DNA of 63,855 nt, the filler included, from Reclinomonas americana ATCC 50394 (lineage: Eukaryota): assembly GCA_048213135.1 (NCBI GenBank). It is 14 parts of 14 records of this genome, joined end to end, with 100 filler letters (N's around TTAATTAATTAA, not from the genome) between each part and the next. Parts side by side here need not be neighbours in the genome. Positions count along the whole stretch, not along the records: positions 58,982 to 61,889 come from AFZH01017331.1; 13 more parts are not named here. One strand, given 5' to 3'. The position numbers were made by a program, and so were the translations under genes. This document shows positions 6,510 through 62,366 of this stretch, one piece after another. Below the pieces are notes generated by a model. That model was not told where the DNA came from, did not search any database, and saw nothing but the letters and a program-made list of their open reading frames with translations. Numbering within the stretch: the stretch's first letter is position 1; every line of letters begins with the position of its first letter.

Positions 6510-6643
6510 TTACCAATGCAGGTCGGGGTCCATGCGACAGCGGAACACGACGACCTCGGCCTCCTCCACCAAAAAGCACCGCAGCACCATCTCAGGCAGG
6601 CACCGATCTTCTCCTCCTCCTCCTCCTTCTTCTTCTTCTTCTT
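6510..6643 (-). CDS. WD40 array copy 7, C-terminal tail only (rest lost in gap)
   Basis: Reads (K/E)n-IGACLRWCC in one frame and ...RCLPEMVLRCFLVEEAEVVVFRCRMDPDLHW* in the tail frame. Confidence 0.8.
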
Positions 6644-6799
6644 NNNNNNNNNNNNNNNNNNNNNNNNNNNNNNNNNNNNNNNNNNNNTTAATTAATTAAN
6701 NNNNNNNNNNNNNNNNNNNNNNNNNNNNNNNNNNNNNNNNNNNGCACAACTGCCACTCACTCACCATGACTCACTTGCTCTCTCCTCTCTCTTATGCAG

Positions 6800-8471
6800 C
6801 ATCGTGGGCAGTCTTCTTGCGTCGCTCACTGGACATGGTGGCAGTGGAGGAGAGGGCTCGCGTGACTATCATGTGACGCGTCCAGAGGGCGGCTATGGAG
6901 AGGGCGAGGACTGGTATCCGCCCAACTCGGCTGCCCCGCGTGAGGGCGAGCCTGATCCGGAGGTCATGCTGTCCACGTGCACGTTGCGTCTCTCTCCTCA
7001 TGTGTGTGACTGCGAGCGCGCGCGAATCTCACATGTGTCGCATGTCGCAGTGGCCGGAAGCGGGGTGCGGTTTCTCTCCACTGTTGTATTTGCAATCGCA
7101 TTCACCATTCTCATTGTTCGCTCAGCATTGTTCATTGGTATCAACTACTTTGGAACGCGTGCGGAACTGCGCGGTTGCATCAACGATGTGCACAACATTA
7201 AGCGGTTCATGACGTCGCACTATCATTTCGAGGACGTGCGCGTGTTGACCGACGATGAGCATGATCCGAATGTGCGGCCGACCAAGGCCAACATTCTCAA
7301 GGTGTTGTGTGGGGATCGATAGGTGTTAGCTGTGACGAGTGTGTCTGATGTGTCGTGCTGGCAGTCGTTCCTGTGGCTTGTGTCGGGCGCGCAAAGCGGC
7401 GACTCGTTGTTTGTGCACTACTCGGGCCACGGTGGCACTGAGCGCGACACTGGTGAGTGGCAGTTGCACGACAAGTCACTACTGTTCGTATTAACATAGG
7501 GAGGGTGTGGCAGATGGCGACGAGGCCGACGGGCAGGACGAGACCATTATCCCCGTGGACTACGAGACGGTCGGCCAGATTGTGGATGATGTTGCGCACA
7601 CGAGCCACTTGCTCCCCATGCAAGCATACTCTCTGTTGTTGACGTCAGGTGTCTCTCTCCCTCCTCCGCGCGCATAGGAAATCAACAAGGTGCTGGTGCG
7701 CAACCTGCCGCAGGGTGTGCGTCTGACTGCGATTTTCGACTCGTGCCACTCGGGCTCCGTGCTCGATCTGCCGTACGTGTACGGCCTCGACCGCGAAACG
7801 GGCCATGTCCGCGAGACCGACAGACGCAAGGCATGGCAGGTGGCGCTCTCCGCCGGCGCGTCGCTCTTGCGGGGTGACTTTAAGGGTGCCAAGAGCCAGG
7901 TGAGAACAATATTATAATCGACATCGTTGTGGAGACTGACATCGGGTGATCTGTCGTGCAGGCCATGGAGGCTTTCGGCATGACGTTTTCTGGCAAGCCG
8001 CACAGGCCGCCGCAGCACACAGCCACCGCAGCAGCTGATGGAGCTCATGGCGGCAAGTCGCCTGCGCAGCTCAAGGCCGAACAGACTCGTTTCACGTGCG
8101 TTGTGTGTGTCTCGTCAAGAATCCTTCTCGAATTCCTCACTTCCTGTCGTCGGCCATTGCGCAGGTACGCCGATGTTATCCAATTCTCCGGCTGCCGCGA
8201 TGAGCAGACGTCGGCCGATGCCAACATTGGCGGCCAGGTGCGTCTCTGGCAGTGCAGCTTCAGCTGCATTTCAGTTTGCTTACCATGTGTTCATGCACAG
8301 GCCACTGGCGCCCTCTCGTGGGCTCTGATCAAGTGCCTCACCGAGAACAAGGACCAGACGTACGTGGAACTGCTGACTAACATCCGCAGGACGCTGGCCG
8401 GCAAGTACGAGCAGGTGCCGCAGATGAGCTCCGGCCACAAGATGGACATGAACACCAGGTTTTTCATGTAG
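6800..8471 (+). CDS. Type I metacaspase (Mca1-like), multi-exon, 5' end in gap
   Basis: Spliced LSTCTGRKRALFIGINYFG..LRGCIND, PTKANILK, DSLFVHYSGHG (catalytic His), DGDEADGQDETIIPVD, RLTAIFDSCHSGSVLDLPY (catalytic Cys), SGCRDEQTSAD, QVPQMSS. Confidence 0.95.
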
Positions 8472-8772
8472 AGCGACGGTCGGGGAGGACAGGCAGCCGC
8501 AGTGACTGTAGCATGCACGTAATACATGCAAGGTTTTATTAGAACTGGAGTAGTGAGCTTCCGACGCGCGTGACAGGAAAGAGAGAGGAGACGAAAAGAA
8601 ACATTAGGACCGAAGCAGTCTGTTCTCCACAACGTCGGCCTTGCCGCTCAGCTGAGGAAACCATTGTCTCTGCCGTTCCACGGACTACGTAAACTAACAT
8701 GCTTGGATGTGCATGAGGCGAAGACAGTCCTTCGCTCGCAATGAAGAGAATAGCGACCAAAACTCTGGCGCC

Positions 8773-9834
8773 TCACCAATGCAGATCGGGATCCATGCGA
8801 CACCGGAACAGCACCACCTCGGCCTCCTCCACCATGAAACAGCGTAGCACCATCTCTGGAAGCCATCGTGAATCTCGCGCCTCTGCCTGTCCTTGAACCT
8901 CTTGCACCGCTCGAAGCGCCAGCCGCGCACTGTCGAGCTCACGGCTGGCACAGGTGTATGGCGAGGACCACACGCGCACCGTGCGGTCGGAACTGCCACT
9001 CACAATGTGCTGTCTGTCGGGAGAAACAGCGACAGAGTGCACCCATGAAGTGTGTCCCTCCAGTCGTCGAACCTCCTCGCCAGTTGCCAGCGACCACACA
9101 CGCACGGTCTTGCCTCCGCCGCCGCTCACAACGTGCTGGCCGTCGGAAGTGATGGCCACCGAGCTCACCCCCCAAGTGTGTCCCTCCATGCGTCGCACCT
9201 CCTCGCCACTCGCGAGCGACCACACCCGCACAGTCTTGTCTTGGCTCCCGCTCACCACGTGCAGGCCATCAGGAGTGACGGCCACTGACCACACCCGGTG
9301 AGTGTGGCCCTCCAAACGCCGCACTTCCTCGCCTCTCTCCACACACCACACCCGCACGATCATGTCCCAGCCGCTGCTCACAACGTACCGACTGTCGGGA
9401 GTAAAAGCCACACATAGCACCCAGTCTCCGTGGCCACCCAGTCGGTGCACCTCCGCGCCACTCGTCAGCGACCACACGCACACGGTCTTACTCCAATCAC
9501 CACTCGCGACAAGCTGGCCATCGGGCGAGACAGCAATAGCATCCACTCTTCCACTGCGTCCCTTTGATCGGTGCACCTCTTCCCCACTGGCCACACACCA
9601 CACTCGCATGGTGCCGTCGTTACCGCCGCTGACAATGTGCTGGCTGTCGGGAGTCACCACCACCGATTGCACCACGTCAGTGTGTCCCTTCAGCAGTCGC
9701 ACTTGCTCTCCAGTCGCCAGTGACCACACTCGAATGGTCTTGTCTTTGCCGCCACTCACACAGTGTTGACCGTCGGGGGTGACCGCGACTGAAAACACGA
9801 GGTCGATGTGACCCACCAGGCACTTGTGAGACAT
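8773..9834 (-). CDS. WD40 array copy 8
   Basis: 353-aa intronless ORF, 7 WD repeats plus tail ...FRCRMDPDLHW. Confidence 0.94.
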   Translation of the reverse strand: MSHKCLVGHIDLVFSVAVTPDGQHCVSGGKDKTIRVWSLATGEQVRLLKGHTDVVQSVVVTPDSQHIVSGGNDGTMRVWCVASGEEVHRSKGRSGRVDAIAVSPDGQLVASGDWSKTVCVWSLTSGAEVHRLGGHGDWVLCVAFTPDSRYVVSSGWDMIVRVWCVERGEEVRRLEGHTHRVWSVAVTPDGLHVVSGSQDKTVRVWSLASGEEVRRMEGHTWGVSSVAITSDGQHVVSGGGGKTVRVWSLATGEEVRRLEGHTSWVHSVAVSPDRQHIVSGSSDRTVRVWSSPYTCASRELDSARLALRAVQEVQGQAEARDSRWLPEMVLRCFMVEEAEVVLFRCRMDPDLHW

Positions 9835-10163
9835 TGTGACAAGGGAGAGAGAGTGGGAGGGGAATGGGGGAGAGAGGGGGGGTGGGGGGAGAAGGGAGTG
9901 GGAGCGTGTTCTCGAGAGACGGGTGCAATCAATGTGACGGGACGAAAAGCAGTCTGTTCTTCAACGTCGACCTGTCGCTCGGCTGAGGAAGCCACTGGCT
10001 TTGCTGCTGGGTGACCAAAAGTTACGAACTGGACGCGCGTGAGTTAAGGGCAAGACTCTTTTTATTGAATAATGGCTTCGACATGAAATTAAGGCAAATG
10101 TTGAGGCACTCAACGCGCAGGAGAACGCGTCAACCATCACCGTTGAGCTCGAACTCTGGCACG

Positions 10164-38375: not shown

Positions 38376-40601
38376 ATGATGGACGAGATGGAAGTGGAGA
38401 ACATTAGCGGCGTTGCGCTGCCGAAGATGTTGCGTCGCTTAGGCTAACGAGGGGAGAGCCTGATTTAGCGCCATCTGCTGGATCACTCACTCTTTTGTGC
38501 CCCCGCTTCCCCCTCTCTCGCGCGCGCAGCCGGTGTTGCATGTGCGGCACTGTGATCACCAGCAACCCGGCCAACATGTGCCCCGACTGCCTCACCAGTG
38601 TGGTCCGCATTCTCTTTGTCTTGCACTCCCTTGTACATCGGAGTTCTCACTCCTCGTTGTTTCCATCACACAGGTGGACATCACCGAGGGCATCCCCCGC
38701 CGCTTCAACCTCTCCTGGTGCAAGGAGAGCGGTCGGTGAGCACACACAGACAAGATCGGGGCGCGCGCGCTCCGACAAGCGGAAGCTATGTGCACATTCA
38801 CATGCCCACTCCTGACACACACACTCTTCCCTCTTCCCCTTGAACAGCTACCTGCAACCACCCAACCGATGGATCCCCGCGGAGCTGGAGAGCGCCGAGC
38901 TGCTCGCGGTCTGCCTGAAGCACATTCGCGGATTGGCCGGTCTGCGCCTCGTCGACGCGCAATTTGTGTGGACGGAGCCGCACTCGCGCCGCATCAAGGT
39001 CCGCATCACCGTGCAAAAGGAGGTCTACGATGCACTGGTGCTGCAGCAGTCGTTTGTCGTCGAGTACGTCGTCAATGACCATCAGAGCCCCGAAGTCGCG
39101 AAGTCGTACACGCCGCACACGTGGAAGTCGGCGGTGCAGGTGCGCCAACTGGTGCCGCACAAGCGCACCATTTTCTACCTGGAGCAGGTGATTCTCAAGC
39201 ACCGCGCGTTCGGTCGCATCACGCACATTAAGGAGATGCCGGACGGCATGGATTTCTTCTTTTCGCATCGCTCGCACGCCCTCAACTTTGTCGATTTCCT
39301 CGGCTCGGTGGTGCCCACGCGCTCGCACTCGTCGAAACAGCTCATCTCCTCCGACATGTCCAACAACACCTACAACTACACGTACACGTTTGCGGCGGAG
39401 ATTGTGCCCATTTGCAAGGACGATTTGGTGGTGATGCCGCGCGAGTTGTACTCGATTGGTGGCACCTCGTCGCCGCTGCTGTTGTGCACGCGCGTCACCA
39501 ACATGATTCAGTTGGTGGATCCCATCTCGTGTCACAGTTGCGTGGGGGAATAAGGGTGAGGGAGGGGGAAGGGGGAGGGGAGGGAAGGGAGAGAAAAGCT
39601 GATATGTAAGCACTCGCCTTCTCCACTCTTCCGTCTTCATCCTGCTGCATTGGAAGGGGAAGATGGCGTTGTTTCTCTCTCCGTTCCTTCTTATTCTCTT
39701 CTTCGTCGAGAGGGGGAAGGGGGAAGCGTGCGGCTCTTCTCTTGCCTTCAGTTGCTCTTCCCACTCGGGCAACCTTTCTCTTCCCAGAGAATGAGAGGAG
39801 GAAGGGGAAAGATGGCGTTGTTCTCGCTCTGTTCCTTGTTATTCTCTTCTTTATCCTTCTCCACTCGCGCAACCTTTCTCGGCCGAGGGGGAAAGGGAAG
39901 TAAGCGGCTCTTTTCTTGCCTTCAGTTGCTCTTCCTATCCCTTCTCCACTCGCGCAACCTTTCTCGACCGAGAGAATGAGAGGAGGGAAAGATGGCGTTG
40001 TTTCTCACTCTGTTCCATCTTTTTCTCTTCTTCATCCTTCTCCACTCGAGCAACCTTTCTCGGCCGAAGGGAATGGGAAGTAAGCGGAGCGTAGCTCCAC
40101 TCTCTCCTTTTTCTGTTGCTCTTTTTCAACTCTTCTCCGTTGTTGTTTCTCTCCTTCTTTCTCTTCTTCTCCGCTCTCCAACGCCCGTCTTCACTCCATA
40201 CTCAAGAAATGAAGAAGGAGAGAGGGCGATCTCTTCCTCTCTACTGTCTCTTTTCTCTCCATCTTTTCTCCTCTCCATTCTCCGCTCGCTCATCTTTACT
40301 CCACACTCGAAAGGAAGAAGGGGACGCAGGGAGAAAGAGGGTTACCCAAGCGCAGACATCTCGTGTTGCCTCGAGTACTCCCTCTTTCTCCACTTCTGTT
40401 GCTCTTCCATTCTCAGTGCGATCTCTCCTCACCAAATCGTACTCGGAAGGACATATTCTCTTCTCGCTCTCGTTGCTTCTCATTCTCTCTGCATCTCTCT
40501 TTTTGTCTCCGTGTCGCATTCGAAAGGAAGGGACGGAGAATAACTGAGTGCATTCTTCTCTTGTTTCATTGCCGTTCTCTTTCTCATTGCTTCTCTCTCT
40601 G

Positions 40602-40647: not shown

Positions 40648-41900
40648 TCTATGTCGCACTCGAAAGGGAAGGATGCGCAGGCCTCGCTCGCTCTCTCTTG
40701 TCCTCTCTCTCCTTCCCCCCNNNNNNNNNNNNNNNNNNNNNNNNNNNNNNNNNNNNNNNNNNNNTTAATTAATTAANNNNNNNNNNNNNNNNNNNNNNNN
40801 NNNNNNNNNNNNNNNNNNNNACCTTCCCCCTTCACCTTCCCCCTCATCCTCCCCCCTCATCCTCCCCCCTCATCCTCCCCCCTCATCCTCCCCCCTCATC
40901 CTCCCCCCTCATCCTCCCCCTTCATCCTTCCCCCTCATCCTCCTCCCTCATCCTCCCCCCTCATCCTCCTCCCTCATCCTCCCCCCTCATCCTTCACCCT
41001 TCACCCTTCATCTCCCCCTCCACCCCCTTCCCCTTTTCCTCACACCCCCTTCCCCCCTTTCCCCTCATACCCCACAGCCGCCGAAATGAACTCCAAATCC
41101 TTCTGGGCCAACCCATACCGCGCACTGGCCTCCCAGAGCGAAATGATTGACTTTATCGTCTACGACACGGAGTTCACGGGCGTGCAGACCGACCACGTTG
41201 CGTCTCCTCCACCCTCCCTCCTCTCTCTCTCTCCTTTTCCCTGGTCGTCTCACACTCTCCTTTTGCGACACAGTACGCCCAAGTGGACGTGCAGCTGGCG
41301 CGCGCCGACCGACCCGGCGACGTGTTCATTGTGCGATCGCACATGGGCTACGTGCTGAAGCCGGGCGACATGGTGCGCGGCTACGACATGCGCTCGTTGA
41401 ACTTTGACGAGGACGCCTTCCGCGCCTACCGCGGCTTCGAGCCACCGTCCGTGATTCTGGTGCGCAAGACCTTTGCGGACCGCGAGAAGCGCAACAAGTT
41501 CCGCCAGTTCAAGCTCAAGCGACTGGACGTGGAGCACGACGACTCGGTCATGCGCCGCACCGACATTCTGCGTGCGGCCAGCGACTACAATCGCTTCCTC
41601 GAGGAACTCGAAGAGGACCCGGAGATGCGTCAGAACGTGGTGCTGTACCGCGACCCGGAGGCACCGCCGCTCGAGCAGTACGAGGTCGAGCTGCAGGCGG
41701 CGCGTGAGCAGGGCCTGGAGGAGCCCGACGTGGTGGAGATGCCAGTGATCTCGCTCGACGAGCTGGTGGCCGAGTTCGACTCGATGGCCATTGACGACTT
41801 TGGCGCTGCGCCGGACGCGGGCGACGAGGAGGTGGAGGCCGACGATGATGCAACGGCGGCGGCGGCGGCAGCAGATGGTGGCGCAAGTGGCAGTGTTTGA
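38376..41900 (+). CDS. NMD3: 60S ribosomal export adaptor NMD3, multi-exon, spans a gap
   Basis: RCCMCG..NPANMCPDC, VDITEGIP, FVWTEPHSRRIKV, VQVRQLVPHKRTIFYLEQVILKH, EIVPICKDDL, SHMGYVLKPGD, FLEELEEDPEMRQNVVLYR. Confidence 0.96.
39650..40090. repeat. Degenerate ~180-bp tandem units in an NMD3 intron
   Basis: Recurring GGAAAGATGGCGTTG...CTCCACTCG.GCAACCTTTCTCG. Confidence 0.6.
40830..41000. repeat. (CCTCATCCTCCC)n 12-mer minisatellite
   Basis: Direct inspection. Confidence 0.85.
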
Positions 41901-44194: not shown

Positions 44195-44746
44195 AATATT
44201 GTTTGGGCGTGTGTCGCACTGTGTCTGCCAAGAACATTCTCGATTTCTGTCCTCTTCTTCTCCCTCCCTTCTCCCCCTCTCTGCCCCATCTCTTCCCCCT
44301 TGCTCTTCCCCCTTGCTCTTCCCCTTCTCTTCCCCTTCTCTTCCCTCCCTTCTCTTCCCCTTCTCTTCCCTCCCTTCTCCTCCCTCCCTTCTCCTCCCCT
44401 TCTCCTCCCCCCTTCTCCTCCCCTTCATCCATCCCTTCTCCTCCCCTTCTCCTCCCCTTCTCCTCCCCTTCTCCTCCCCTTCTCCTCCCCTTCTCCTCCC
44501 CTTCCCCTCACCCTTCTCCCTCCCCCTTCCCCTCACCCCTCCCCTCACCCTTCCCCTTCCCCTGCCAACAGCAAGCCAAGACTGGCGCCATGGAGTCTGC
44601 GTTCCAGGCCAGCCAGTAAGCGCTCTTTTGTATACTGTGTGTGTGCGCGCAAGCCATTATCACACCATTGAACGAGTACTGGGTTGTTGTTACTTTTTGT
44701 TCCATTTTCATCGCTTTTTCTCCCTTCCCTTCTCTCTCCCTCCCCA

Positions 44747-46025
44747 TCACATGGCACTGATCATGTGTGTGATGGGAGCGGACATGACGGAGCTGGCGAC
44801 ACTGGAGCGGCGGTTGTGTGGCGCGTACTTGCGCAACAGCAGGCGCAGCACTTGAATGTCGACGGGCTTGTGGATCAGGTCGGTGAAGCCCTGTGTCATT
44901 TGTCAGTATGCGTTGCTGCGAGAGAGACACGGGAGGGAGCAGAAAACAAAACGCAACTGCTTCCCGCATGGTCGAGTCAATGTCCAGCTTGCGACCCTCG
45001 AGCATGCCGACCAGCGGCATGAGTGCGGCGGGCTCGGCGAGTCCGCGAATCAGCTTGGCCGTCTCCAGCCCGCTGAGGCCGGTCATGGACAGATCGATAA
45101 AGGCGATGCAGAAGGGACCGTGAGTGGAGGCGCGCTGCACGGCATCGTTGCCGTCGGTCGCCTGCACGACTTCGACGTGCAGACGCGAGAGCATGCGTTC
45201 CAACAACTTGCGAGCAATCGGCTGCTCGTCGCACACCAGCACGCGGTTGCAGGGGCGGTCGGCCACGGTGGTGCTGCACATGGACTCGGCCAGCGACACG
45301 CTCGACATGCCGCGCGGAATGTGCACGCTGTTGACACGCGTGCTCATGTAGCCTTGCGAGGCGGCGTCGTCGGTGCTGCCGGCGGTGGTGTACATGCGCA
45401 GCAGGTTGAGCGAGCGTTGGCGCTTGGGCGCCGGCGCACGGGCTGATAGCAGTGCGCGTTGCAGTGGTGTCTGCGTGTGCATCGAGTCCACCTCGTCGGC
45501 CTGCAGTACCTCGCTGACCGGCACCGCGTTGGAGGCCTGGTTTTTTACAAAAGTTAGCTGTGAATGAAAACAACGAAAGTACACACATCATTACGCACCT
45601 CCGAGTTCGAGCTCGCCGCTACCAGCCCGCTCAGCATGGTAGACACCACCGACATGCGTGGCTTCGCCGGCTCCACGAGCCACGTCTGCAGCATGCGCCG
45701 AATGTCGGGGGCACGCACGGGCTTCGGAGCAAAGTCTTGCATGCCCTGTGAACACAGCAGAGGGTGAGTGGGCGAGTAAAGAAGGAGAAGCAGGGAGAGG
45801 GGAATGAGAGGAGGAAGAAAAGCACAGAAAGACGAGAAGAAGAGGAAGAAGAAAAATGAGTCGAGCACGAAGTAGAAAAAACACAAGAAAAGCAGAAGCA
45901 GAAGGAGAGAGGAAGAAGAAGAAGGCAAAGAAGGTGGTGTGGAAGACAACAAACAAGGATAAGCAGAACAACAAGAAGACAACGAGACGAACACGAAGAA
46001 GAAGAAGAAGAACAGCGACAACAAC

Positions 46026-46059
<34 letters not shown>

Positions 46060-46099
46060 ACAAATACACGAGCAAAACTGCAGCATCAACAACAACGAG

Positions 46100-46149
<50 letters not shown>

Positions 46150-48231
46150 GAACAAGAACAAGCAGAGAATGAAGAAGTAAAAGAACGAGAAGAAGAGGAG
46201 GAGGAGGAAGACGAAGGGGCGTAAGGAGGATATATACAAGAAGGAGTTGGAAGAGGAGGAGAATCAGGGAGAGGGGAACGAGTGGAAGAAGAAGGAACAA
46301 ACACATCATGTAGGAGAAGAAGCAGAGGAAGCAGAAGAAGAAGAAGCAGCAGCAGAAGAAGAAGAATAAAGTGGAACGAGGAGATGGTAAGAACAGATGA
46401 AGCTGAAGACGAAGGAAGACATATTGGAGATGGAGGAGAAGAAACAGAAAGAGGGGAATGAAGAGAGAGGAAGCTTAAGTAGAACGAAGAGGAGACGAAC
46501 AACAAGAACAAGTGGACCATGAAGAAGTAGAACAAAAAGAACTCCAGACGCAACAACAACGCGACACCGCTCTGCCGTATCCGGTGTGTTCATGGCCGTC
46601 ATGGCAATGACAGGCACGAGGCAAATTGGGGAGGCGTAATTGCGGCGGATGCGCTCCGTCGTCTCCCACCCGTCCATACTCGACATCTCAATGTCCATAA
46701 AGATAATGTCGATGGGCCAGTTGTGCGTCAGCAATTGCAGCGCCTCGGTGCCATTCTTTGCTGACATGACCTCGCAACCCATGCGCTCCGTGTGCCGACT
46801 CAGCACCTTGCGATTCATGTTGTTGTCCTCCACAATGACGACTCGCGGCTGCCGACGCCACGTCGACCATCGTTCCTCCTGTACCCGATCCGCCGCTTCA
46901 GCAACAGAGAAACAAGGCACGTGCCTGCGAGAATACAAACCGAGCCGCTGATATTGTCCGTGTTCGATGGCGACGCAATGGAACCCTGATTCTCAAACGT
47001 GGGCGTGCACACATTGCGCGGGACCATGGCGCCAGCATCCAGCACAAACACCTCCATGTGCTCGGCGCCAAACGTCAACTGCATCGCCTTCCATGAGTCA
47101 CCCGCGTACGAGACACAAAGACGCACCCTTCGAATTCTCCCTCACCTTGCGCGACGAAATGTGAATGGCCTCCGGCAGGTGCTGCTTGGTGGCACCAGTG
47201 ACCGCCACCTCACCACTGTGACACAGATTGCGCACCGCCAGCGCCGTGTTGACCGCATCGCCGCACACATCGAACGGCTTGCCGAGGAACACCACCAGAC
47301 GACTCGTGTGCACCACCGCGCGCACGGGCAAATTATGCCGCACTCCCGACGCCACAAACTGCTTGGCCACCGACAGCGCAATGCACGCATCCTTGCTGAT
47401 ATCCTTGCCCGTCGGCTGCCGATGCATCGCCGTGCATCCGATCCACCGACCGCACGCACCACGAACACGCGTCATGCCATTGACCTCGCCGATCGAGTTG
47501 AGATCGGCCTGCAGCGCGGCCAGAGCACGCGACAACGGCATCGGATCCCACTCCTTCACCACGCCCTCAAAGTCCGACACATCTGCCGCCACCACCGTCA
47601 CGCTCTCAAACACCTGCACAACACATAAGTCAGAGTGAGCTCGGAAATCATCGCTTTCTGTGTGTGTGCACACCTCAAAGAACAGCATGCGAGACATGTC
47701 AACACTGCCGGCACTGGTGCTCTCGCCCTGCCCGGGGAACCACCCAGTGGAGCTATCACGCGACGAGTGCACCGGCTTGATCCGCTGTCCTTGCCTTCAC
47801 ACACACACGCACAGAAGTCAGTCAACTGCCTGTGCACAAAAGACAACTCTGAGTGCGCGCAACTGTGATCCCTGCGTGCCTCCTCCCAGTGGCTTCCACC
47901 GTCTCCGCGAGGGTGCAACAGCGTCCTTTTCACCACTGTTCTTTGTCAGCGTGCCCTCTCGCGGAAGAGTCGTTGTCGGCATTTCGATTTCAGAGGCCGA
48001 CGACGACGACGGCGACGAGGACGCGGGAGAGGACGCCTCTTGCTGTTGTTGTTTGTGCTTGCGACGGTGTCTCTTGTGACGTTGGTGGCGACGGCGACGG
48101 CGACGGCGTCGACGTTCCTCTTCCTCGGAGAACTCGTCCTCGTCGCCCGTGAGAACGTCGTCGTCGTCCTCGTCGTCGTCGTACATCGAGTCGGTTTCGG
48201 TAAAGTCGGGCGTCGACGAGCAGCGACCCAT
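44747..48231 (-). CDS. Signalling protein: degenerate class III nucleotidyl cyclase domain plus two response-regulator receiver domains
   Basis: FESVTVVAADVSDF...FDVCGDAVNTA; REC1 VVIVEDN..IIFMDIEM..DG..VIAMTA..GMQDFAPKPV; REC2 VLVCDEQ..AFIDLSM..GFTDLIHKPV. Confidence 0.8.
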
Positions 48232-51387: not shown

Positions 51388-52960
51388 ATGGCAAGTGCGG
51401 CAGAAGGTTTGTGCGTTGCATCTGGGGCGACTGCCACGTTCGCGTGTGTGTATGTGTGTGCTTTCCGCGCGCGCGTGTGTGATGAGTTGGCATGTCGCCA
51501 TGTTCTTCCTCACACACAGCAACAAGCGGCGAGGCCAGTGGCAGTGGCAGCAGTGCACCAGTGGTGGACGCGGCTGCAGTCGTCGACGACGAGGGTACGC
51601 TGTCTCTCTCTCTCTCTCTGATCAATGCTCATCTATTTCCTCTTGTGATCGATCACTCATGCATTGCACACATACAGATGTGGTCGTGGAGTCATCGGTG
51701 CAACTGGCGCAGTACTCGGTCGCCGGATCGCCTCTGCTGGGCGTGCCACCTCAATTCGCCGCCAGTGGCGAGTTGCGTTTGCTCACACCTCCCACCCATC
51801 GCCCAAGTGAGTATATTGACTGTGACCTCCCAACAAGGCTGTCGCTGGACGACCGCTTCTGGCTGTGCCGCAGCGTCGCTGTCGAGTGTATCAAGGACGA
51901 GGAATTGCGCACGCTGCTCGAGAAGAAACCGCATATTACGGCCTACGATGGGTTCGAGCCGTCGGGACGCATGCATCTGGCGCAGGGCGTGATGAAGGCC
52001 GTCTATGTCAATCGCCTCGGCCGTGCGGGCGTGAACTTTATTCTGTACGTTGCCGACTGGTTCGCGCAGCTGAATAACAAGTTGGGAGGCGATTTGGCCA
52101 AGATCCAGACGTGTGGGCGCTACATGGTGGAGGTGTGGAGGGCGTGCGGCATGAATCTCGACTATGTGCAGTTTGTGTCGAGCTCCGAGGCCATCAACTC
52201 GCGTGCTGGCGAGTACTGGCCGCTGGTGATGGACATTGCGCGCAAGAATACGGTGGAGCGCATCAAGCGCTGCGGGCAGATTATGGGACGCAAGGAGGAG
52301 GAAGGCATGTCGGCCGCGCAGATCCTCTACCCGTGCATGCAGTGCGCCGATATCTTTTTCCTCAAGGTTCTCACTCATTCTCCTCGCCCTCTCTTCCACC
52401 ACATTCATGCTCACTCCTCCCACCACACACACACACAGGCCGACATTTGCCAACTGGGCCTGGATCAGCGAAAAGTCAACATGCTGGCGCGCGAGTACTG
52501 CGACTCGATCAAGAGGAAGCTGAAGCCGATCATTCTGTCGCATCGCATGATGCCCGGTCTGCTGCAGGGCCAGGAGAAGGCCTCGAAGAGCAGCCCCGAC
52601 TCGGCCGTCTTCATGGACGACACGCCAAAGGAGGTCAACAAGAAGATCAACAGCGCGTGGTGCCCGGCCGGCGACGTCGCCAACAACCCCGTGCTGGACT
52701 ACGTGCATCACATGGTGTTCAACACCCTCGGCGTATTCGAGGTGAAGCGCGCGGCGGATCACGGTGGTGATCGTGTGTACGACAACTACGCAGAGGTGGA
52801 GGCCGACTTTGCCAGCGGCGCACTGCACCCTAAGGATCTGAAGGCCGGCCTGGCGGCCGCCATCAACCAGCTGTTGGCGCCGGTGCACCATCACTTTGAG
52901 ACGAACGAGGAGGCCAAGGCACTGCTGCAACGAGTGCGCAGCTTCAAGATCACGCGTTAA
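51388..52960 (+). CDS. TyrRS: Cytosolic tyrosyl-tRNA synthetase (plant/protist type)
   Basis: AYDGFEPSGRMHLAQG, ADWFAQLNNKLGGDL, YPCMQCADIFFLK-ADICQLGLDQRKVNMLAREY, KASKS, LHPKDLK. Confidence 0.96.
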
Positions 52961-53088: not shown

Positions 53089-56000
53089 CTAAAGTACCGT
53101 GCAGCATCCCCTGTGTCGCAGACGCTCGGCCTCCTGCTGCAAGTCGGTGAACTGCGTGCGCAGCTCGCCGAGTTCCTTGTCGCGCGTCGCCAGCTCCTCG
53201 CCACGCGCCCTCAGCTCGCGCTCCGCCGCCTCGGTCCGCTCACGCTGCTGGCGCAGTGCGTCCTCCGCTCGCTGCCTCTCCTCGGCAAGCTCGCGCTCAC
53301 GACTGTGCAACTGCTCCTCAATCACCACCATCGTGGCCTGCTGCTCCTGCAGGCGCTCCTCGCGGTGTCGCACCTCCACCTGCAGCTCTTGGATGGCGGA
53401 GTTGTCGTGCTGCGTGACCTCCTCGGTGACTGCGACGCAGGCGAGCAGTGAGAGACCTGACCAAAAGTGGGAAAAAAGAGACAAGTCGACGCACTCTTGG
53501 CTGTGGTGTGCGCCACGTGAGCCTGCAGTTCGCGCTCGCGCTCCAAGAACCTGTCCTCGTATTTCCGCTTCACCTCCTCCTTGGCCTGCTCGAACACGAC
53601 GTCGCGCTGCCGCCGCAGCTCCAGCGCCATGTCCTCCTCCATCTTGCGGCGCTCGTTCTCCACCGCGGACCTGAACTGGGCACGGAAGGCGGCGCGCTGA
53701 CTGCGTCGCTCGCGATCCAGCTCATCCTCCAGGTCCACCACAGTCAGTGCCGCCACCAGTGGCTTGTCAATGCACAGCAGTCGCACGGCTTCGGCAGCAT
53801 TGCATGTCAAGGCCTCCTCCGCAGTAAACGTCTCCAGCCACCGCTGCAGCTCCTCCAACGCCGGCCCGTCGGTGGGAGAGCCGTCGTCGAGCATGGCAGC
53901 AATTACACGCTGGAATGACTCCAGCGACAGGGGCGCGTTCTCGTCCTCCTCGTCGTCGTCGTCACCACTCGAGCCAGCATCGATCTCTGTGTGGGGGACG
54001 GGGAAAGAAAGTGAGCATCAAAGCACAGAGTGCAAACCAACAAAGGACAGGAGGCTCACCACCATCGGCGTCCGGCACGTCGACCTTGATGTCGACAAGC
54101 GATCGCGGTTCGGATGACGACGCACGGCGTGCCGGCTTGCTCGGCGACTCGCGAGGCAGGTACTTGCCGACCAGCTTGACAATGCGGCTCTCCACGTAGT
54201 GGCGGAGCCGCAATAGCAGCTGTCGCACACCGTCCAGCGCCAAGCGAGTGCGCCCAGTGAGGCTGTCTTGCATCTCGTCCTCGTACCGCGGTGCCAGTGA
54301 CTCGTCCCCGCCATTGCCACTACCACCGGCGACACCAACATCGTCAGTGGCCGCGGTGGGCGACTGGGCGTGGTGTGGCTGATCGGGTGCTCCATCGGCG
54401 GCCGGTGTCGACACGCGGTGCGACGGTGACTGCACGCTGCGCAGGTAGCTGTGCGTGGTGGAAGGAATCAGTGAGAAGACAGCGGCAAGGAGAGAAGCCT
54501 CTTGCGCCGCACCTTGACAACGCCGCCACACGCTCCTGCACGTCGAGCGGGAGGAGACCGCTCGCCCCGGCAGTGCCGAGGGACGCGCGTCGCTCCGTAA
54601 AATAGTGTTGCAACCAGCCGTGTCCGGCTTGTGTGACATCGGCCGACGGAAGGCCAAATGTGCGGCACATGAGAGCGAGCGAGAACTCGAGATTGTAGAC
54701 CAGTGCGCCGCGCAGCCGATGCACATGCTCATCTTCCTCGACCTCGCGCTCCGACTCCAGCTCCTCCTGTGTCAGCTCCATGATTTGCTTCTGCAGCGAT
54801 TGTGAGCAGATCCAACAGCATAGGCAGCACAGGGACAATCAATCACACACCGCCTCGCGTGCCTGTCGCACCGCGGAGAAGCGAGTGACAGCGGCAAGAA
54901 TGTACGCAGCCAGTGCCTCGGCTGCCAGCAGCGGATGCATGCGATCGGCTGTGCGCAAAAAGTGTGAGATAGAGGCATCGTTAAGTTGACATTTCACAGG
55001 CACGCACTCGTCTCAGCGCCGGAGAGCGGGGCGGCCACCTCTGGCCGCAGGTACTTGCTAGCGATGCGGTTCACGTCCACAATGCCACGCAGCTTCTCAC
55101 GCATGGCGACCACAAATGCGCGGTGATTACGAGTATCCAACTGTGATGCAGACGTGAGCAACAATGCGACCTCTGCAGATAAACGAGCGACGGGTGTCAA
55201 ACGCAAACCTCACGCGTGTACTCGGCATTTCGCAGCAGCTCCTCGTACTGCGCAATCTGGCGATCGCGATCAATAACATCGGCTCGCAACTCATCCTGTG
55301 TCACCACGCAGTGAGTGTCACAGCCGAGAAAACAAAGAGTTGACGAGAAAATCGCTGCACACCTCGGTTGTTTGCAACCAAGTAGTCAGATAGCGGTACG
55401 CGTCCTTGTATGCTGTGCGCGCAAGTATGGTGAGCGAAAGAGTCGCCCTGACTGAGTGTGGACACCAAGGGCGACGCAACTCTCTTGCACAACAGTGGCC
55501 GCATCGCTGGCCGACCGCACCAGATCGGCGTGCTCTCCCGTCATCAACTCCATTTGTGCACGCATATTGTCGAGCTCCCGCTGCAGACTCTCGGCCAAGA
55601 TCTTGTAGTCCACCTCCTGATTCTGCTCCGGGTGAATCACGACCGACATGCACCGCTGGCCGAAGCGCAGCGAACTGTGCGCGGAGGAGGAGAAGTGAGT
55701 TACCACTGCTGCTGCTTCTCTCCCTTTTCCGCACACTCACACACCTCAGTGTCTCCGAATGGAAGCGCTCCGTCGGCCCCACGCACAGTAGCAACGAGGT
55801 TCGCGAATTGCCACCGAGTGAGTCTTGCAGGAGGCGGGTCAGCTTGGAGTCGCGGAAAGGCACGTGCGTGCGACCGGTCTCGCCCAGTGCGTTGATGCAG
55901 ATGCCGAGGTACGTCAGCGACTTGTTGATGTGCGTGGCCTCGGTGAAGCGCGTGCCCTCCGCACCGCTCTTCTTCACACGCTCACTGCCGGCCAAGTCGA

Positions 56001-58047
56001 CAATCACCAGCTTGCCGACGAGACGGGCGCCGTTGAGCGAAGGTGGTCGGTCGGCCGACATGGCCAGGTGCTCCGGCAACGGCTCCTTGTCACTCTTCTT
56101 GACCATGATCTGGAAAATGGCGTGCGACCGCGACGACGCGGCGTTCATCCGCGTCTCCGCGTACACGATGCGATCACGGCCGGCAAACAGCAGCTCCATG
56201 ACGTCGGCACGCGCGCGCACCACATACTCCGACAGGCCCTCCACGTACACGCCGTGGGCGGGGTGCTCACGAATGTTGAGGTTTTCGTTTTTCGGCTTCA
56301 GCAGGTCGTTGATTTGCTCGTTGTAGATCTGCGGCGGGATGAGCACGGGCAGAGAATGGCAAGGAGGAGAAGCGGCAAGCATGAGCGCAACTTGCATGAA
56401 TGAGCACGTGACGAGGTACTCGTGGAACGGATCGCTCTCCATTTGCTGGAACAGGTCGTCGACAGCACGTGGCACGACACCGTTGACGTCGCTGCGTTGG
56501 GCGTCGACGTTGAGGAGGGAGTATGTTTTGCCGGCGCCGGTCTGGCCGTAGGCTGTGATGAGGGAAAGCGATGAGGGAAAGGGGGAAAGGAGGGGAAGTG
56601 GGAGCGTCAGAAGATCCCAAGGGGGTAACAACAAAGACGATAGAGAGTGTCGCTGAGAATTCGATATCAAGATACAGAAAGAGGGAGACAATGACCATTC
56701 TGCGAGTGAATGAAAGGGGAACACCACTGTCGCAGAGAACTCGCAAGATGGCAAGAGATTCGCAGTGCAGCACGGGGGGTACACCAGATGGAAAGAGTGC
56801 TGCAGAGAAACCGCGAGGGGAAGGTAGAGAAACAGGTGCACTCCAGAAGGGGAGGGAGTCTTGCAGAAAAGAGATTCACAACGCAGTACACAATGGAGTT
56901 GCAGCGATAGCAATCGACAACTCTGTGAGAGAAGAACGAAACAAATGTGACAGCGCGATTCTACAGCCTCGACACAAGAGAAAGACTCCATAAGCGATTC
57001 CCCCACTCAGCGGCTACACACAAGGAGGTGCACGCGGGACATAAAATTCGAAACCACGACGATTCCGCAGGCACGACACACAGCGATTCCACGGTTGCAC
57101 ACACACGCGACACAACACCCTCTGCCAATCCCTGCTCTCTCCTCCCTTCTTCTCTCTCCCTTCCATCTCCTCGATCAGTTGGACACTGCAATTCGCGAGA
57201 CAGCCATGACCCAGCAACCCCCCGCCGACGCACCCATGATCGTGGCATTGTAACCGTTGAGGATCGGCTCAAAGGTCGACTTGAGCGAGTTGAACACCTC
57301 CTCCTGCGTCGCCGTCGGGCCCAAACACATATCGAAATTGAACTCGCGCGCCTCCTCCAACGACATGCCATCCGGTCGCAATCGCAACTGAATGCAGACA
57401 GACGCACGTGTGTACGTGTGAGAGAGAGACACACACGCAGAGGGATAGTGAGGCATGCGCGCGTAACTGTGTGCCCATCCTCGCTAATCTCAATGCACGT
57501 GGCCTCCTCCACCTCACCGGGCCCGTTCGGTGGCCGGCACCGCAGAAACACCTGCACACACGCACACAAGAAGAACGAGTCACACACTGCGCGCGCACAC
57601 ACACACTCAAAGTGTGAGTGAGAGAGAAAGAGAAACAGACAGACCTTTACACGCGAGTCCATATCCGCAAGTGCCGACAGTTGAATCGCACCCTCCATCG
57701 CTGATCGACTGCGCTGTCGTCTGCAACACACACACACACAAGCACGCACACATGCGCGTTCAGTCACAAACACAAACACGCACTTTTGCCACTCTTTCTG
57801 CTCACCGCAACCCTGTCTTCCCTCCTCCTCCTCCTCCTCCACTGGCACCCGCTGCAGCAGAGGCGCCTGCAGTTGCAGGCACAGACGCAGACGACGATCC
57901 TCCACCTCCTGCAACTGTGGGCGGTGTGCTTGGTCGTGGACTGCTGGGAGGTGTGTTGCCTGCACTGCCTCCCGTGCCTGCAGTGGGCGGCGTGCGCGGG
58001 CGACCCATGTTGATGGGCGTGGTGCCGGATCGCGCGCGCGTGGACAT
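53089..58047 (-). CDS. Kinesin with N-terminal motor and long coiled-coil tail, multi-exon
   Basis: RVKVFLRCRP, GYNATIM-AYGQTGAGKTYSL (P-loop), QIYNEQINDLL, NAASSRSHAIF (switch I), VDLAGSER (switch II), HVPFRDSKLTRLLQDSLGG; first exon from MSTRARSG joins in phase 2; tail exon structure approximate. Confidence 0.9.
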
Positions 58048-59078
58048 GATTTTTTTGATCGTTGTGGTGGGACGACGACGGACTGGCAGGTGTTTGTCAT
58101 GCACGTGATCGAAGTGCATGTCAACCGAAGAATGCTCAACCAAACAAACAAACAGCGTTGTCGTATATATGATCAAGCGGCTGCTGGCATCTTGCTGTGC
58201 TGGCACCATTCGGGGGCTTTCGTTTTCCAGAACACCATGGGCGTACGCGTGTCGCGCAGCCAGTAAAAGTGTGCACCGCTGCGTACGGTGGTTGCTGGCT
58301 GGGATGTCGAGTCTGTACTTGTAGCCCTTGGCTTCGACGCGATCGACCACGTACTGGTTCGTCCGCTCGCCTTGGCCGGGAATCGCCCACGACGTCGACA
58401 GCACCATGCCGCACATGCATGGCGTGCACGTACGCGCCCTGAGCACCCGACTGTTTGTCTTTACGTTTGCTTCCCCACTGTCACCCCTTTTCTTTGGACC
58501 TGTATATTTCTGTGGGTGGCCATGGATGAACCGGTCCCACCCCTTCTCTTCGTCACAGGCGCCGATTGACGGCATGAAGCGAGTTTTGTGGAGACGGAGA
58601 AGGACATGTTGTGTGTTTGGTATACGTGCGTGTGTGTGTGTGTGTGTTTGTGTGCACGCTGCGTGTCTATATCTCAGGCTGAAGTAGATGTACAACTCTC
58701 AGTTTATGTTGATTGGTATTGATTGGTGTACATCACATTGGGGGGGGCGGGGGGGGGGGGGGGGGGAGAGGAGGGAGGGGTGGTGTCTTCCTACTATGTC
58801 GCGCGACGGCGGTCGGTCGGGCGACGCGGCCGGGTACGGGTACGTAGAAGAGAGAGAGGCGGCGGCGGACGCACGACGACGNNNNNNNNNNNNNNNNNNN
58901 NNNNNNNNNNNNNNNNNNNNNNNNNTTAATTAATTAANNNNNNNNNNNNNNNNNNNNNNNNNNNNNNNNNNNNNNNNNNNNGCGTCGTCGTACGACGACG
59001 ACCGACGACGACGTACGACGTACGACCGACCGACCGACCGTACGACGTACGACGACGACGACGTACGTACGTACGACG

Positions 59079-59215: not shown

Positions 59216-60299
59216 CTTGCCGTTCTTTCCGTGTGGACCAACAGGTCCCTTCTTGCCCTGCAGACCATCCTGCATGCAGACGCGCGCACACGCGTACGTG
59301 GTCGTGTGAGTGTGACGGTGCGAGGGTGTGTGATCAACTCGCACTCGGGCGCACCTTGCCATCTTTGCCGTCCTTGCCGTCTTTGCCAGGCTTGCCGGTG
59401 GCACCGCGAGGGCCATTCTGCAGCCACCCTTGCGTGTCAGAACACACGTACTCGACGCACCAGGATGCATCTTTCTTCAGCTCACTTTGCCGTTCACGCC
59501 GTCCTTTCCACGAGTGCCTTGCGGTCCTGTGGGTCCACCCTTCATCAAGAACACGTGAGCGCCACAGCAAGAGAAAACGCGCGCGTGCATGAATACCTTG
59601 CCATCTTTGCCGTCCTTGCCATTCGGCCCCGGCAGTCCCTCCTGCAGCACAGCACTTTAGGCGCCCGTGGAGAAGAGCGTGCAACACGCACATGTACGAC
59701 CTACCCGACAGTGCAAGACGCAGCGGCGCTTGAATGCGTCGTCATCGTCGTCGTCGTCGTCGTCGCCGTCGGTGTCCTTGTAGATTACAGGCGTTTCTGA
59801 CAGGATGCCGGTCTCGTCCTCCTCCTCATTCTCTTCCTCCTCGTCCTCCAGCTGGAACTCTTCCTCGTCGAATGCATCGAGAACATCCTCGTCATCGTCC
59901 ATGTCAACTGCAGTCGGGCGTACGTGAGACAACCGACGACAGATCGAGGATCACGTGCACGCTGAGGCAAAGCTGTTCACGCAACTCTCGTCTATTGAGC
60001 CAAATTCATAGAGCACAGCAGCGACACAGTGAGCAACACTCGAGCGGGAGCGTCACGACGCTTCGAGCTTCATGATCACTCACCGTCGACCTCAAAGTCT
60101 TCACTCTCAAGCCCCGCAATCTCTTGCCCCACCATGTCCTCGGCCTCGTCTGCGCGCGGGAAATCGCAAGTGAGCGGGAAGTCGAGATCTCAGGTGCGTG
60201 CTTGTGCAAGTGGCGCCACTCACAGGCATGTGCCGAGACGAACAAGACAGCCAGCAGTGTCATCGCCGCGGCGAGCACAAGCCAGAGGTTACGTTGCAT
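59216..60299 (-). CDS. Secreted collagen-like protein A (3' end in gap)
   Basis: Signal peptide MQRNLWLVLAAAMTLLAVLFVSAHA; acidic region ending FKRR; Gly-X-Y exons 59597-59641, 59486-59539, 59355-59417, 59216-59269. Confidence 0.85.
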
Positions 60300-60534
60300 C
60301 GTGTGTGTTTTTCTCTCCACAATGCCAAAAGAACAACAACAAGCAACCGTTACTCGCTGTTGGCGCGAAAACGGAAAATGAGCGCGGGAAACAAATATGG
60401 TCACGCGGCTGGCAACAGCTCGTGCACGTTGTACGCTTTGCGATTGAGTTTATTCAGGGATCATGCACGCAGAGCACGTACGCCTCATGCGGCGGCCCGG
60501 AAACACCTAATCGTCATGCGTCTAGCAGCCATAC

Positions 60535-61739
60535 TCAGTGCTTCAGTACGGTGCACGTGTGAGGCGCCGGGCTCGCGCACCCACTCCGTGGACTCTTGCA
60601 GCCTGCCTTCTTCTTGTGACCGACAATGATGCCCTGTGACAGGCAGCAAGAGAGCACAGGGGCTGAGACGACGTACCGCACAAGACAATGAGCACGCTCT
60701 TGTACTGTACCTTGCAGCAAATGATCGTGCCATCGGCGCGACGGAAGCCGAATGTCTCGGTCTGCACATGCAAGTTCAGTCGGCGTACTAGATACAGAAG
60801 ACAGCAGCAGCACATACCGAGCACCCGAAACCGCCAAGACGCTGAACAAAGTAGTGATTCGGTCGCACGACGATCAGCTGTGATAAAATCACCGCGTGAG
60901 TGCCCTCTCTCCCATGCAGAGAGCGAACCGTCGCACGTGTATGAGAGAGCTACCTTGCCATCACGTCCGCGCGGTCCAGCCGGTCCCTGGGGACCGATGG
61001 GACCAGTCTTGCCTGCCGGTCCACGCTTTCCAGCGGGACCACGCTCACCGTCCTTGCCAGGCTTGCCTTGCGGTCCGCGCTGCAAAGTGAGAGGATGTGG
61101 AGAGTGAATCATCGAGCGTGCAATGGAGTTGTTGCTTGCTTGGCAGTACACGCACATCACCCACTGCGCCGTCCTTGCCGTCCTTGCCGTCCTTGCCGTT
61201 CGGACCTCGCGGACCGCGCTGGCTCACAAATAATTCATCAATAACAGGAGGGCGCAAAACAAGTGCAACAAGCAACAAACCGGCCCGTTCTTTCCGGCCG
61301 GACCCGGCGGTCCAGCTGGCCCAATCTGCACGCGATAGAATGAATACAGTGCGTGGCGTGCATACACATGACGACAGCGCACAAAAGCCTCTCACCTTGC
61401 CAGGCTCGCCGTCCTTACCGGCAGCACCGGCAGGTCCACGCGGTCCCCTCTGTATCGCACACAGCGTGAGTGCTGGATACGGCGCAGGTGCACACGCGGA
61501 CAACGAATGCTACCTTGCCCGGAAGGCCACGAGGGCCAGGCGGTCCACGCTACACCAAGCGCAAAGGTGTGCGCGCACAATGAGTACACCACTATTTTTA
61601 CGGGTCACATGAAACACCAAACCTTGCCAGGCTGTCCGGGCTTGCCATCCTTTCCGTCGTGTCCAGGGGGACCACGCTGTGCAACCAAGCGGTAAACAGC
61701 AACGAAATCAGTAACACGGTTCGACGCACGAGCAGATGA

Positions 61740-61792: not shown

Positions 61793-62096
61793 AGAGAGAG
61801 CTACGCGACCGGCACTTTTCCTCGCCTACTCCGTCGACCGACGACTACTCCGTCGACCGGCCCTCGCACGTCCACGCCGCACCGACACCNNNNNNNNNNN
61901 NNNNNNNNNNNNNNNNNNNNNNNNNNNNNNNNNTTAATTAATTAANNNNNNNNNNNNNNNNNNNNNNNNNNNNNNNNNNNNNNNNNNNNAACCGAACGTA
62001 ACGTAACGTAACGAACGTAACGTAACGTAACGTAAGAACGTAACGTAACGTACGAACGTAAACGAAGTAAACGAAACGTAAGTAAGAACGAAGAAA

Positions 62097-62128: not shown

Positions 62129-62366
62129 GTGTGTGTGTGTGGGCGCGTGGGAACAAACTCACCGCCATCATCAGCGTACTGGGAGACGAGCATCTGCTCG
62201 TCCACATCCTCAGCTTCGTCTGCAGAAAAACATATGGGAGAGAGTGAACATACTGCGGAAACAGAACACACAGAGAGAGAGAACTAGATGTGCACTCACA
62301 AGCATGCGCAGCAATGGCAAGCAGCGCCAGCACAATGACCAGCGTCACCCACTTCAGATGTCTCAT
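60535..62366 (-). CDS. Secreted collagen-like protein B (spans a gap) with a small Cys-rich C-terminal domain
   Basis: Signal peptide MRHLKWVTLVIVLALLAIAAHA then DEAED; Gly-X-Y exons 61623-61676, 61514-61549, 61396-61449, 61281-61325, 61156-61218, 60954-61079; C-terminus GFGCS-TETFG..IICCK-GIIVG..C..C..CTVLKH*. Confidence 0.85.

Follow-up and report, generated by a model that had tools for sequence, protein, structure and literature searches.

In animal fibrillar collagens the primordial unit is a 54-bp exon that begins with an intact Gly codon and ends with a Y codon, and exons of 45 and 99 bp have been ascribed to unequal crossing-over following the model of Yamada (1980), as set out in PMC2852846. 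Collagen domains are also widespread outside animals, non-opisthokonts included, and the repeats alone cannot decide between homology and convergence (Linden and King 2021 preprint, 10.1101/2021.10.08.463732); the words 'exon' and 'intron' each occur 0 times in that preprint, and gene structure is not treated there. In this study we analyzed a window of 63,855 bases (the whole stretch of DNA under study, composed of 14 contigs of 1.9-8.3 kb each with 100-nt spacers of N44 + TTAATTAATTAA + N44 between them) from the assembly GCA_048213135.1 of Reclinomonas americana ATCC 50394. Two neighbouring genes on its minus strand, here called gene A and gene B, carry ten short Gly-X-Y exons, all of which are cut between the X and the Y codon. 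Our results support the view that they are intron-rich eukaryotic genes of secreted collagen-like proteins, and the best explanation for the pair is that of head-to-tail paralogues encoding small proteins of this kind.

The six reading frames of the window were scanned for runs of at least four Gly-X-Y triplets. Collagen-type runs were confined to the minus strand of the contig at 58982-61889, where ten of them were found together with one short antisense run within exon B6, and the 17 runs listed from other parts of the window are low-complexity sequence rich in Gly. The first-pass annotation of this DNA had reported ten Gly-X-Y exons with GT-AG borders, and scripted border checks returned the same sizes for all of them (54, 36, 54, 45, 63 and 126 nt in gene B; 45, 54, 63 and 54 nt in gene A; Table 1). 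Its description of the register was equally accurate, since all ten exons are in phase 0 and are multiples of 9 nt, the first codon encodes a Y residue that is followed by Gly, and the last codon encodes an X residue. The final dipeptide is Gly-Lys in eight exons, Gly-Pro in B4 and Gly-Asp in B5. Being a multiple of 9 and being in phase 0 count as a single constraint, because all exons have one register; moreover, the exons are not independent observations if they are duplicates, and a chance probability for the pattern would then have little meaning beyond the statement that it is not random. When the exons were joined, Gly occupied 42 of 42 triplet positions in gene B, which bears out the earlier count of at least 42 uninterrupted triplets, and 24 of 24 in gene A. 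The introns of the collagen part measure 56-85 nt. In a register test that considered every frame-keeping GT..AG pair within +/-9 nt at the eight collagen-to-collagen introns, the Gly periodicity was kept by the called splice pairs only, save one alternative B5 donor, which lies 9 nt upstream and gives an exon of 54 rather than 63 nt with the register unchanged.

These genes resemble animal fibrillar collagens in their many short phase-0 exons, whose sizes are multiples of 9 nt grouped near 54, and in having a single register, as would be expected if an exon-intron unit had been amplified and unequal crossing-over had followed. The sizes 45, 54 and 63 nt are found here, compared with 45, 54, 99, 108 and 162 in animal fibrillar collagens. 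The exons of the animal genes start with Gly and end with Y, whereas all ten exons described here start with Y and end with X. The shift from the animal Gly-start exons that had been noticed at first reading is therefore real, the cut being placed one codon earlier, X|Y, in 10/10 exons when compared with the animal unit as given in PMC2852846. The two groups also differ in the length of the helix, which is about 338 triplets in the animal proteins and at least 42 (gene B) and at least 24 (gene A) here, and in the introns of 56-85 nt and the probably non-opisthokont host of the present genes. A COLFI C-propeptide was not found in gene B, whose exons C1 and C3 gave no Pfam match, and the C-terminus of gene A lies outside the assembly. 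Similarly, the type IV/spongin NC1 domain (C4) had no Pfam match in the C-terminal exons of gene B that were scanned, and the whole domain there is merely 69 residues long. Two further proposals of the first-pass annotation fared less well. Convergence on 54 bp is weak, for 4/10 exons have this size (5/10 with the alternative B5 donor), and if sizes are uniform over 36, 45, 54 and 63 nt, the probability of at least 4 of 9 exons at 54 nt is 0.17. Combinatorial isoforms made by exon skipping are not supported, the in-frame arithmetic being all that speaks for them; the abstract of PMC6335736 treats high exon-skipping rates as a bilaterian trait.

The short phase-0 exons that encode the helix, each cut between X and Y codons, would most likely have arisen when an exon-plus-intron unit of some 45-63 nt was amplified in tandem, and B6 would be a fused exon. 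Residues at the exon borders are not distributed like those in the interior. Pro stands after the first Gly in 8/10 exons as compared to 16/56 other X positions (p=0.003). Exons open with Arg in 5/10 cases as compared to 8/56 other Y positions (p=0.02), and they close with Lys in 8/10 cases as compared to 20/56 other X positions (p=0.014). This border-locked Pro/Arg/Lys pattern is what the amplification of one exon-intron unit would leave. The constant register could also be produced by repeated intron gain at favoured sites, AAG and then the intron, in an originally intronless Gly-X-Y array. Such gain would agree with the AAG or AAA that stands directly before GT in 8/10 exons, in keeping with the AG|GT context common at donor sites, and with introns that have no clear mutual similarity, but 20 further Lys at internal X positions have no intron, two exons end with CCG and GAT, and the shared Arg-Gly-Pro exon starts are not explained by donor-site preference. 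We consider intron gain unlikely, though deserving of serious attention, and prefer amplification of an exon-intron unit. Amplification, if any, would be old, because the introns lack convincing similarity to each other, and it was probably independent of the animal 54-bp unit, because the latter starts at Gly. An independent origin is plausible, which goes beyond what two truncated genes can show.

The collagen reading of both genes is well supported. Exon B6 alone (42 residues) matched the Pfam family Collagen (PF01391) with 32.0 bits, above the cut-off of 27.2, and the 21-residue exons B5 and A3, taken singly, scored 18.3 and 18.1 bits, both under the cut-off. The Pfam scan took six exons, namely four collagen or flanking exons plus C1 and C3 (C2, with 17 residues, was too short), and no family besides Collagen was found in these six, DUF7932 included among the absentees; gene A exon 3, which encodes an acidic pro-region, had no Pfam match. 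In gene B, Pro is present at 18/42 X and 8/42 Y positions, that is 26/84 of the X/Y positions (31%), and Arg at 11/42 Y positions, while Pro at Y in gene A amounts to 2/24. GKD triplets account for 6/42 in gene B and 7/24 in gene A, and the Gly-X-Y domains are basic, with a net charge of +16 (B) and +8 (A). The helix had been described earlier as GKD-rich and probably stabilised by charge; such stabilisation is plausible, but Pro and, at Y, Arg are no less prominent. When B6 was modelled as a homotrimer, the score was 0.58 as compared to 0.02 for the best of three controls, with three copies, unlike the calibration, in which the mark was reached by 21/30 proteins solved as one-chain pairs and by 0/23 solved single chains. 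At least 99% of the contacts agreed between the model runs, the partner pLDDT was at least 90, and the contacts of least error were in register, with an offset of 0-2 residues. The predicted trimer lends support to the likeness and is not a proof of it. The Gly-X-Y stretches might instead be disordered, or adopt another polyproline-II arrangement with no intermolecular triple helix. We regard this as very improbable in view of the signal peptide, the high Pro content, the perfect Gly periodicity across 42 triplets, the score of B6 above the Pfam Collagen cut-off with no other Pfam family in the scanned exons, and the modelled B6 trimer, which stands far above the best control.

The composition also bears on ancestry. 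Linden and King reported a median X/Y proline content of 29.9% for metazoans, as against 15.6% for choanoflagellates and 0% for SAR (10.1101/2021.10.08.463732). The present proteins are like other non-metazoan collagen-domain proteins in having Gly-X-Y repeats outside animals, often with a signal peptide, and their repeats of at least 126 (B) and at least 72 (A) residues are comparable with the SAR median repeat length of 85.5. Unlike the typical low non-metazoan values, the Pro content of gene B is at the level of the metazoan median. This content, far above the SAR median, would be expected if the genes shared ancestry with holozoan or metazoan collagens, by descent or by transfer, with the register shifted by intron loss and regain or by sliding, and so would the Pfam Collagen match of the largest exon, B6. 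However, no COLFI, C4 or other collagen-associated domain was found in the six exons scanned, the register differs in 10/10 exons, tyrosyl-tRNA synthetase (TyrRS) suggests a non-opisthokont host, codon use and intron size are host-like, and Gly-X-Y similarity is low in information. Shared ancestry is in our opinion improbable, and a separate amplification in the present lineage remains the preferred reading. In another lineage, the secreted collagen-like genes of Blastocystis have been termed 'bacterial type' (PMC5608401).

Outside the helix, the start of gene A at 60299 opens a typical signal peptide, with its hydrophobic core followed by AHA|Y at the junction. Introns 1 and 2 of this gene are in phase 1, and the acidic sequence after the signal peptide, which had been read as DEAED in the first-pass annotation, is YEAED, with the Tyr codon split T|AC by the phase-1 intron. 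The 90 residues past the signal peptide contain 43 Asp+Glu and 5 Lys+Arg, and the KRR site predicted before the helix is indeed present at the end of this acidic region. Gene A goes on past the A4 donor into an (AC)n repeat and the contig end, which borders the gap 58882-58981. On the contig at 58982-61889, gene B is without a start. A signal-peptide exon on the next contig (62300-62366) is probably exon 1 of gene B; this exon and gene A exon 1 are reciprocal best non-self matches in the window (36% identity, E 0.2). It is followed by an exon with the phases and motif of gene A exon 2. At least one exon, as in the case of gene A exon 3, should be located in the gap 61890-61989, because the exon at 62163-62219 ends in phase 1 and B1 starts in phase 0. 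We infer across this gap that both exons (62366-62300 and 62219-62163) belong to gene B, which is consistent with one gene. The statement that both genes have signal peptides thus holds for gene A, while for gene B it depends on the link to the next contig.

The small Cys-rich C-terminal domain that had been assigned to gene B is present, with 69 residues and 6 Cys encoded by three exons. The spacing of the Cys is irregular, with one Cys, a CC pair 15 residues on, and three more that are 11, 7 and 9 residues apart. The model of this C-terminal part was derived from splice-site quality alone, and joining B6 to C2 is also in frame. No second copy of the C-terminal exons was found elsewhere in the window, and an Atlas look-up of the last exon C3 gave no usable match. 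Taken together, at least eight introns are present in gene B and at least six in gene A. Four runs, all very small sets of DNA contigs, were compared with the window. A DNA contig of run X1 bridges both genes at 60178-60797; it is unspliced, has 0 differences, and may share data with the assembly. Record 2 of the same run, a DNA contig of 541 nt, has three short matches to collagen exons that are spaced as introns would space them, with matches at 61048-61078 and 61639-61661 and 86 other letters between two pieces, and it probably belongs to a further paralogue of genes A and B.

Several known groups of short collagens were compared with these genes. Cys residues flank the Gly-X-Y blocks of nematode cuticle collagens, as is the case here, but those genes have few introns and the blocks are interrupted. 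The nematode proteins are likewise small and secreted, and according to the abstract of PMC10538796 a dibasic furin/kexin-type site precedes their helix on the N-terminal side. No sequence relationship is claimed. Cnidarian minicollagens have 12-16 triplets, polyproline flanks and 6-Cys domains with fixed C-x3-C spacing. Membership in this group was rejected on the basis of at least 42 triplets, the absence of polyproline flanks, and the irregular spacing of the Cys in the gene B C-terminal domain. In bacterial and viral collagen-like proteins such as Scl, BclA and those of giant viruses, short helices can be stable without hydroxyproline owing to charged residues and Arg. A homologue search with exon B6, restricted to a length of 123-394 residues, returned 3076 proteins at E<=10 among 5959 candidates. 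The best 120 of these 3076 were all generic PF01391 proteins; few of the 120 are named, those that are named are bacterial, and many carry PF18573, which we take to be the BclA C-terminal domain. By repeat similarity, bacterial and viral collagen-like proteins are the top matches among the 120 listed. They are intronless, whereas genes A and B are intron-rich and without the PF18573 found in many of the matches. BLAST of the spliced gene A N-terminus and gene B C-terminus against the 120 best B6 matches gave a best E value of 1.7 over 21 residues. Assignment to the Scl/BclA type, which combines an intronless gene with a BclA-C/C1q-like or other bacterial anchor domain at the C-terminus, was rejected as well, given the introns of both genes (at least eight in B, at least six in A) and flanking domains unlike those of the best 120 repeat matches. 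A metagenome scan with a degenerate 21-nt motif common to the two YEAED exons returned 20 loci that are alike at the motif alone, three of which hold one Gly-X-Y run of at least five triplets each; none resembled the collagen contig beyond the motif, and all 20 were judged to be chance matches.

The host of the genes was assessed from housekeeping genes in the window. A neighbouring contig carries a single-exon TyrRS gene of non-opisthokont eukaryotic type. Against solved chains, its product scored 370-407 bits with eight (8zmi, 7sc6, 5usf, 3p0h, 3vgj, 7ror, 7ros and 7rot) and 94-99 bits, in the C-terminal half alone, with 1n3l, 7rou, 5thh, 5thl and 2dlc. We take 1n3l and 2dlc to be the human and yeast TyrRS, and several of the high-scoring chains presumably come from Leishmania and Plasmodium. 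A haloarchaeal-type TyrRS has been described as a shared mark of opisthokonts (Huang et al. 2005, as cited in PMC1920508). The best TyrRS identities in the protein database were 60-63% (green algae, two other proteins and Rhodelphis), with 47-53% for oomycetes, and in the tree the window protein groups with two others, within a polytomy that also takes in green algae and streptophytes. For NMD3, the best identity was 66%, a Colponema vietnamica transcript had 58%, and fungi, Balamuthia, plants and a tardigrade had 52-59%; C. vietnamica is the closest named match outside fungi and plants, no closer than several fungi. The NMD3 tree places the window protein beside one other protein and outside the fungal clade (SH-aLRT 99) and is otherwise a polytomy. 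No near-100% match to either protein was present in the two match lists, the best being 63% for TyrRS and 66% for NMD3, and the proteome of the host thus seems to be absent from the database. The host is apparently neither an animal nor a fungus, and it is probably not an opisthokont, with TyrRS as the one good marker; the earlier suggestion of a probably non-opisthokont host is strengthened by the TyrRS scores and by the position of NMD3.

The collagen genes appear to belong to this host, because the size and form of their introns and their codon preferences match those of NMD3 and the neighbouring genes. The first three NMD3 introns are about 60-110 nt long with GT-AG borders, so the 56-85-nt collagen introns are host-like, and the preferred codons (GGC, AAG, GAC) are alike in the collagen genes and the neighbouring housekeeping genes. 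The nearest matches of B6 are generic collagen repeats, with the named ones among the 120 listed being bacterial and many carrying PF18573, which might suggest that the contig is foreign to the host genome, either a contaminant of animal origin or DNA recently acquired from a bacterium or a giant virus. But with their many short GT-AG introns, neither gene can be bacterial or viral as it now stands; moreover, the GC content, the preferred codons and the length of the introns are as in the neighbouring housekeeping genes, and the adjacent contig ends have the same simple repeats. To our knowledge, a GC content of 58% together with introns of 56-85 nt fits no animal. A foreign source is therefore exceedingly improbable, and we treat the two genes as part of the host genome.

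Table 1. Positions of the collagen-like genes and of other features in the 63,855-base window
Feature	Position	Strand	Remarks
Gene A exon 1, signal peptide, 76 nt	60224-60299	minus	phase-1 end
Gene A exon 2, YEAED acidic start, 66 nt	60084-60149	minus	
Gene A exon 3, 203 nt	59705-59907	minus	acidic pro-region with KRR end, then C-x3-C pair before helix
Collagen exon A1, 45 nt	59641-59597	minus	AG/GT, phase 0
Collagen exon A2, 54 nt	59539-59486	minus	AG/GT, phase 0; acceptor AAG
Collagen exon A3, 63 nt	59417-59355	minus	AG/GT, phase 0
Collagen exon A4, 54 nt	59269-59216	minus	AG/GT, phase 0; then GTGCGT donor
Intergenic region, gene B stop to gene A ATG, 235 nt	60300-60534	minus	direct reading; contains AATAAA
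Signal-peptide exon of upstream paralogue, 67 nt	62300-62366	minus	phase-1 end; ATG, hydrophobic core, AHA|Y junction, GTGAGT donor
Exon 2 of upstream paralogue, YEAED, 57 nt	62163-62219	minus	phase 1 to phase 1; phases and motif as gene A exon 2
Assembly gap/spacer	61890-61989		separates gene B collagen exons from N-terminal exons
Collagen exon B1, 54 nt	61676-61623	minus	AG/GT, phase 0
Collagen exon B2, 36 nt	61549-61514	minus	AG/GT, phase 0
Collagen exon B3, 54 nt	61449-61396	minus	AG/GT, phase 0
Collagen exon B4, 45 nt	61325-61281	minus	AG/GT, phase 0; ends Gly-Pro
Collagen exon B5, 63 nt	61218-61156	minus	AG/GT, phase 0; ends Gly-Asp
Collagen exon B6, 126 nt	61079-60954	minus	AG/GT, phase 0; 14 triplets
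Gene B exon C1, 60 nt	60818-60877	minus	AG/GT, phase 0; no Pfam family
Gene B exon C2, 51 nt	60711-60761	minus	splice sites; CC pair
Gene B last exon C3, 96 nt + TGA	60535-60633	minus	3 Cys; no Pfam family
TyrRS, single exon	51716-52954	plus	non-opisthokont eukaryotic type
NMD3, N-terminal and SH3 parts	38388-39538	plus	
NMD3, OB domain	41271-41819	plus	
WD40 open frames, nine	784-16096	minus	contigs 1-4
tRNA gene	16047-16127	minus	
Open frame with fibronectin type III domain	27697-28995	minus	433 residues
Cyclase and receiver-domain open frames	44511-47796	minus	
Kinesin motor open frame	55321-57006	minus	Pfam E 9e-76

The contigs of the window appear to stand in scaffold order, because NMD3 is interrupted by the spacer at 40721-40820 and the order and strand of its parts are correct on both sides. 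This order matters, because the collagen finding spans the contig at 58982-61889 and borrows features from the next contig. A simple repeat is often common to the end of one contig and the start of the next, for example (AC)n at 50514/50615, and CGACG-type repeats are found at both sides of the junction 58881/58982. Most contigs end within (GA)n, (AC)n or CGACG/AACGT-type simple repeats, and about 35 G's with one C are located at 58733-58770, near the end of the contig that carries TyrRS and the kinesin frame; simple repeats limit this assembly. Other features were observed in the window. Nine long intron-free open frames (365-481 residues) with 5-7 WD40 repeats each lie on the same strand of four consecutive contigs; they make up a single giant WD40 gene or else a cluster of genes in tandem, and the last of them has the tRNA gene at its upstream end. 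Successive open frames encode the catalytic domain of an adenylate/guanylate cyclase and, after it, two response-regulator receiver domains; these frames may be a single signalling gene of unusual domain order. A fibronectin type III domain is found at the end of the 433-residue open frame.

With regard to function, the following pathway can be proposed. The signal peptide would direct the chain into the endoplasmic reticulum, where the acidic pro-region, with a net charge of about -38 in gene A, may mask the Gly-X-Y domain, which is basic and rich in Lys and Arg (net +8 in A and +16 in B), and a kexin/furin-type protease would probably remove the pro-region at KRR. The Cys that flank the helix, the C-x3-C pair before it in gene A and the 69-residue 6-Cys domain after it in gene B, might register and lock three chains, and the Gly-X-Y domain would then zip into a triple helix stabilised by X-Pro, Y-Arg and Lys/Asp pairs, with or without hydroxyproline. 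The trimers may finally join an extracellular coat or matrix. The exon structure, the Gly periodicity, the composition, the Pfam match and the trimer score of B6 are results of the analysis, and secretion, cleavage, disulfide nucleation, an extracellular role and the history of amplification are inferred.

Overall, we consider it fairly probable that the two genes encode secreted collagen-like paralogues that are processed and trimeric, with an exon array that came from exon-intron amplification. Several points weigh against this explanation. All junctions were deduced from GT-AG sites and the reading frame, assembly gaps truncate both genes, and the link of gene B to its N-terminus crosses a gap. 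The exon-end Lys (AAG) could reflect a splice-site preference and not descent, and the similarity between introns is unconvincing (best z 4.9 versus a mononucleotide shuffle, mean z 1.1). The score of the B6 trimer may stem from model memory of solved collagen peptides, relatives with the same non-collagenous domains were not found among the B6 matches listed or in the Atlas, and the placement of the host depends on a single marker gene and a tree of poor resolution. The bolder proposal, that a non-opisthokont lineage independently built proline-rich, animal-grade collagen genes from an exon-intron module of about 54 nt with an X|Y cut, is tentative, and we would sooner doubt it than accept it.

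An exon-modular collagen gene in a unicellular non-holozoan, or the X|Y register, was not found in the main texts of the open-access library that was searched. Non-animal collagen domains are already known, and what is new here is a gene structure made up of exon modules with the X|Y register. Whether the scattered collagen domains of eukaryotes are homologous or convergent is an open question, for which the Gly-X-Y sequence itself is too information-poor, but the position of an intron within the triplet is an independent and discrete character for collagen origins. Ten exons off the animal register in a probable non-opisthokont suggest that exon-unit amplification is a repeatable route to collagens, and the intron registers of choanoflagellate, algal, fungal and SAR collagens could make the question of origins testable. 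These proteins combine an acidic pro-region, a dibasic site, flanking Cys and a Pro/Arg/Lys-rich helix, and would be candidates for hydroxyproline-independent collagen-like materials. If the proposed history is true, this lineage took the same route as that proposed for the ancestral animal fibrillar collagen, with an X|Y cut, and the intron register would be a heritable marker of separate origin that could be used to count the origins of modular collagens across eukaryotes.

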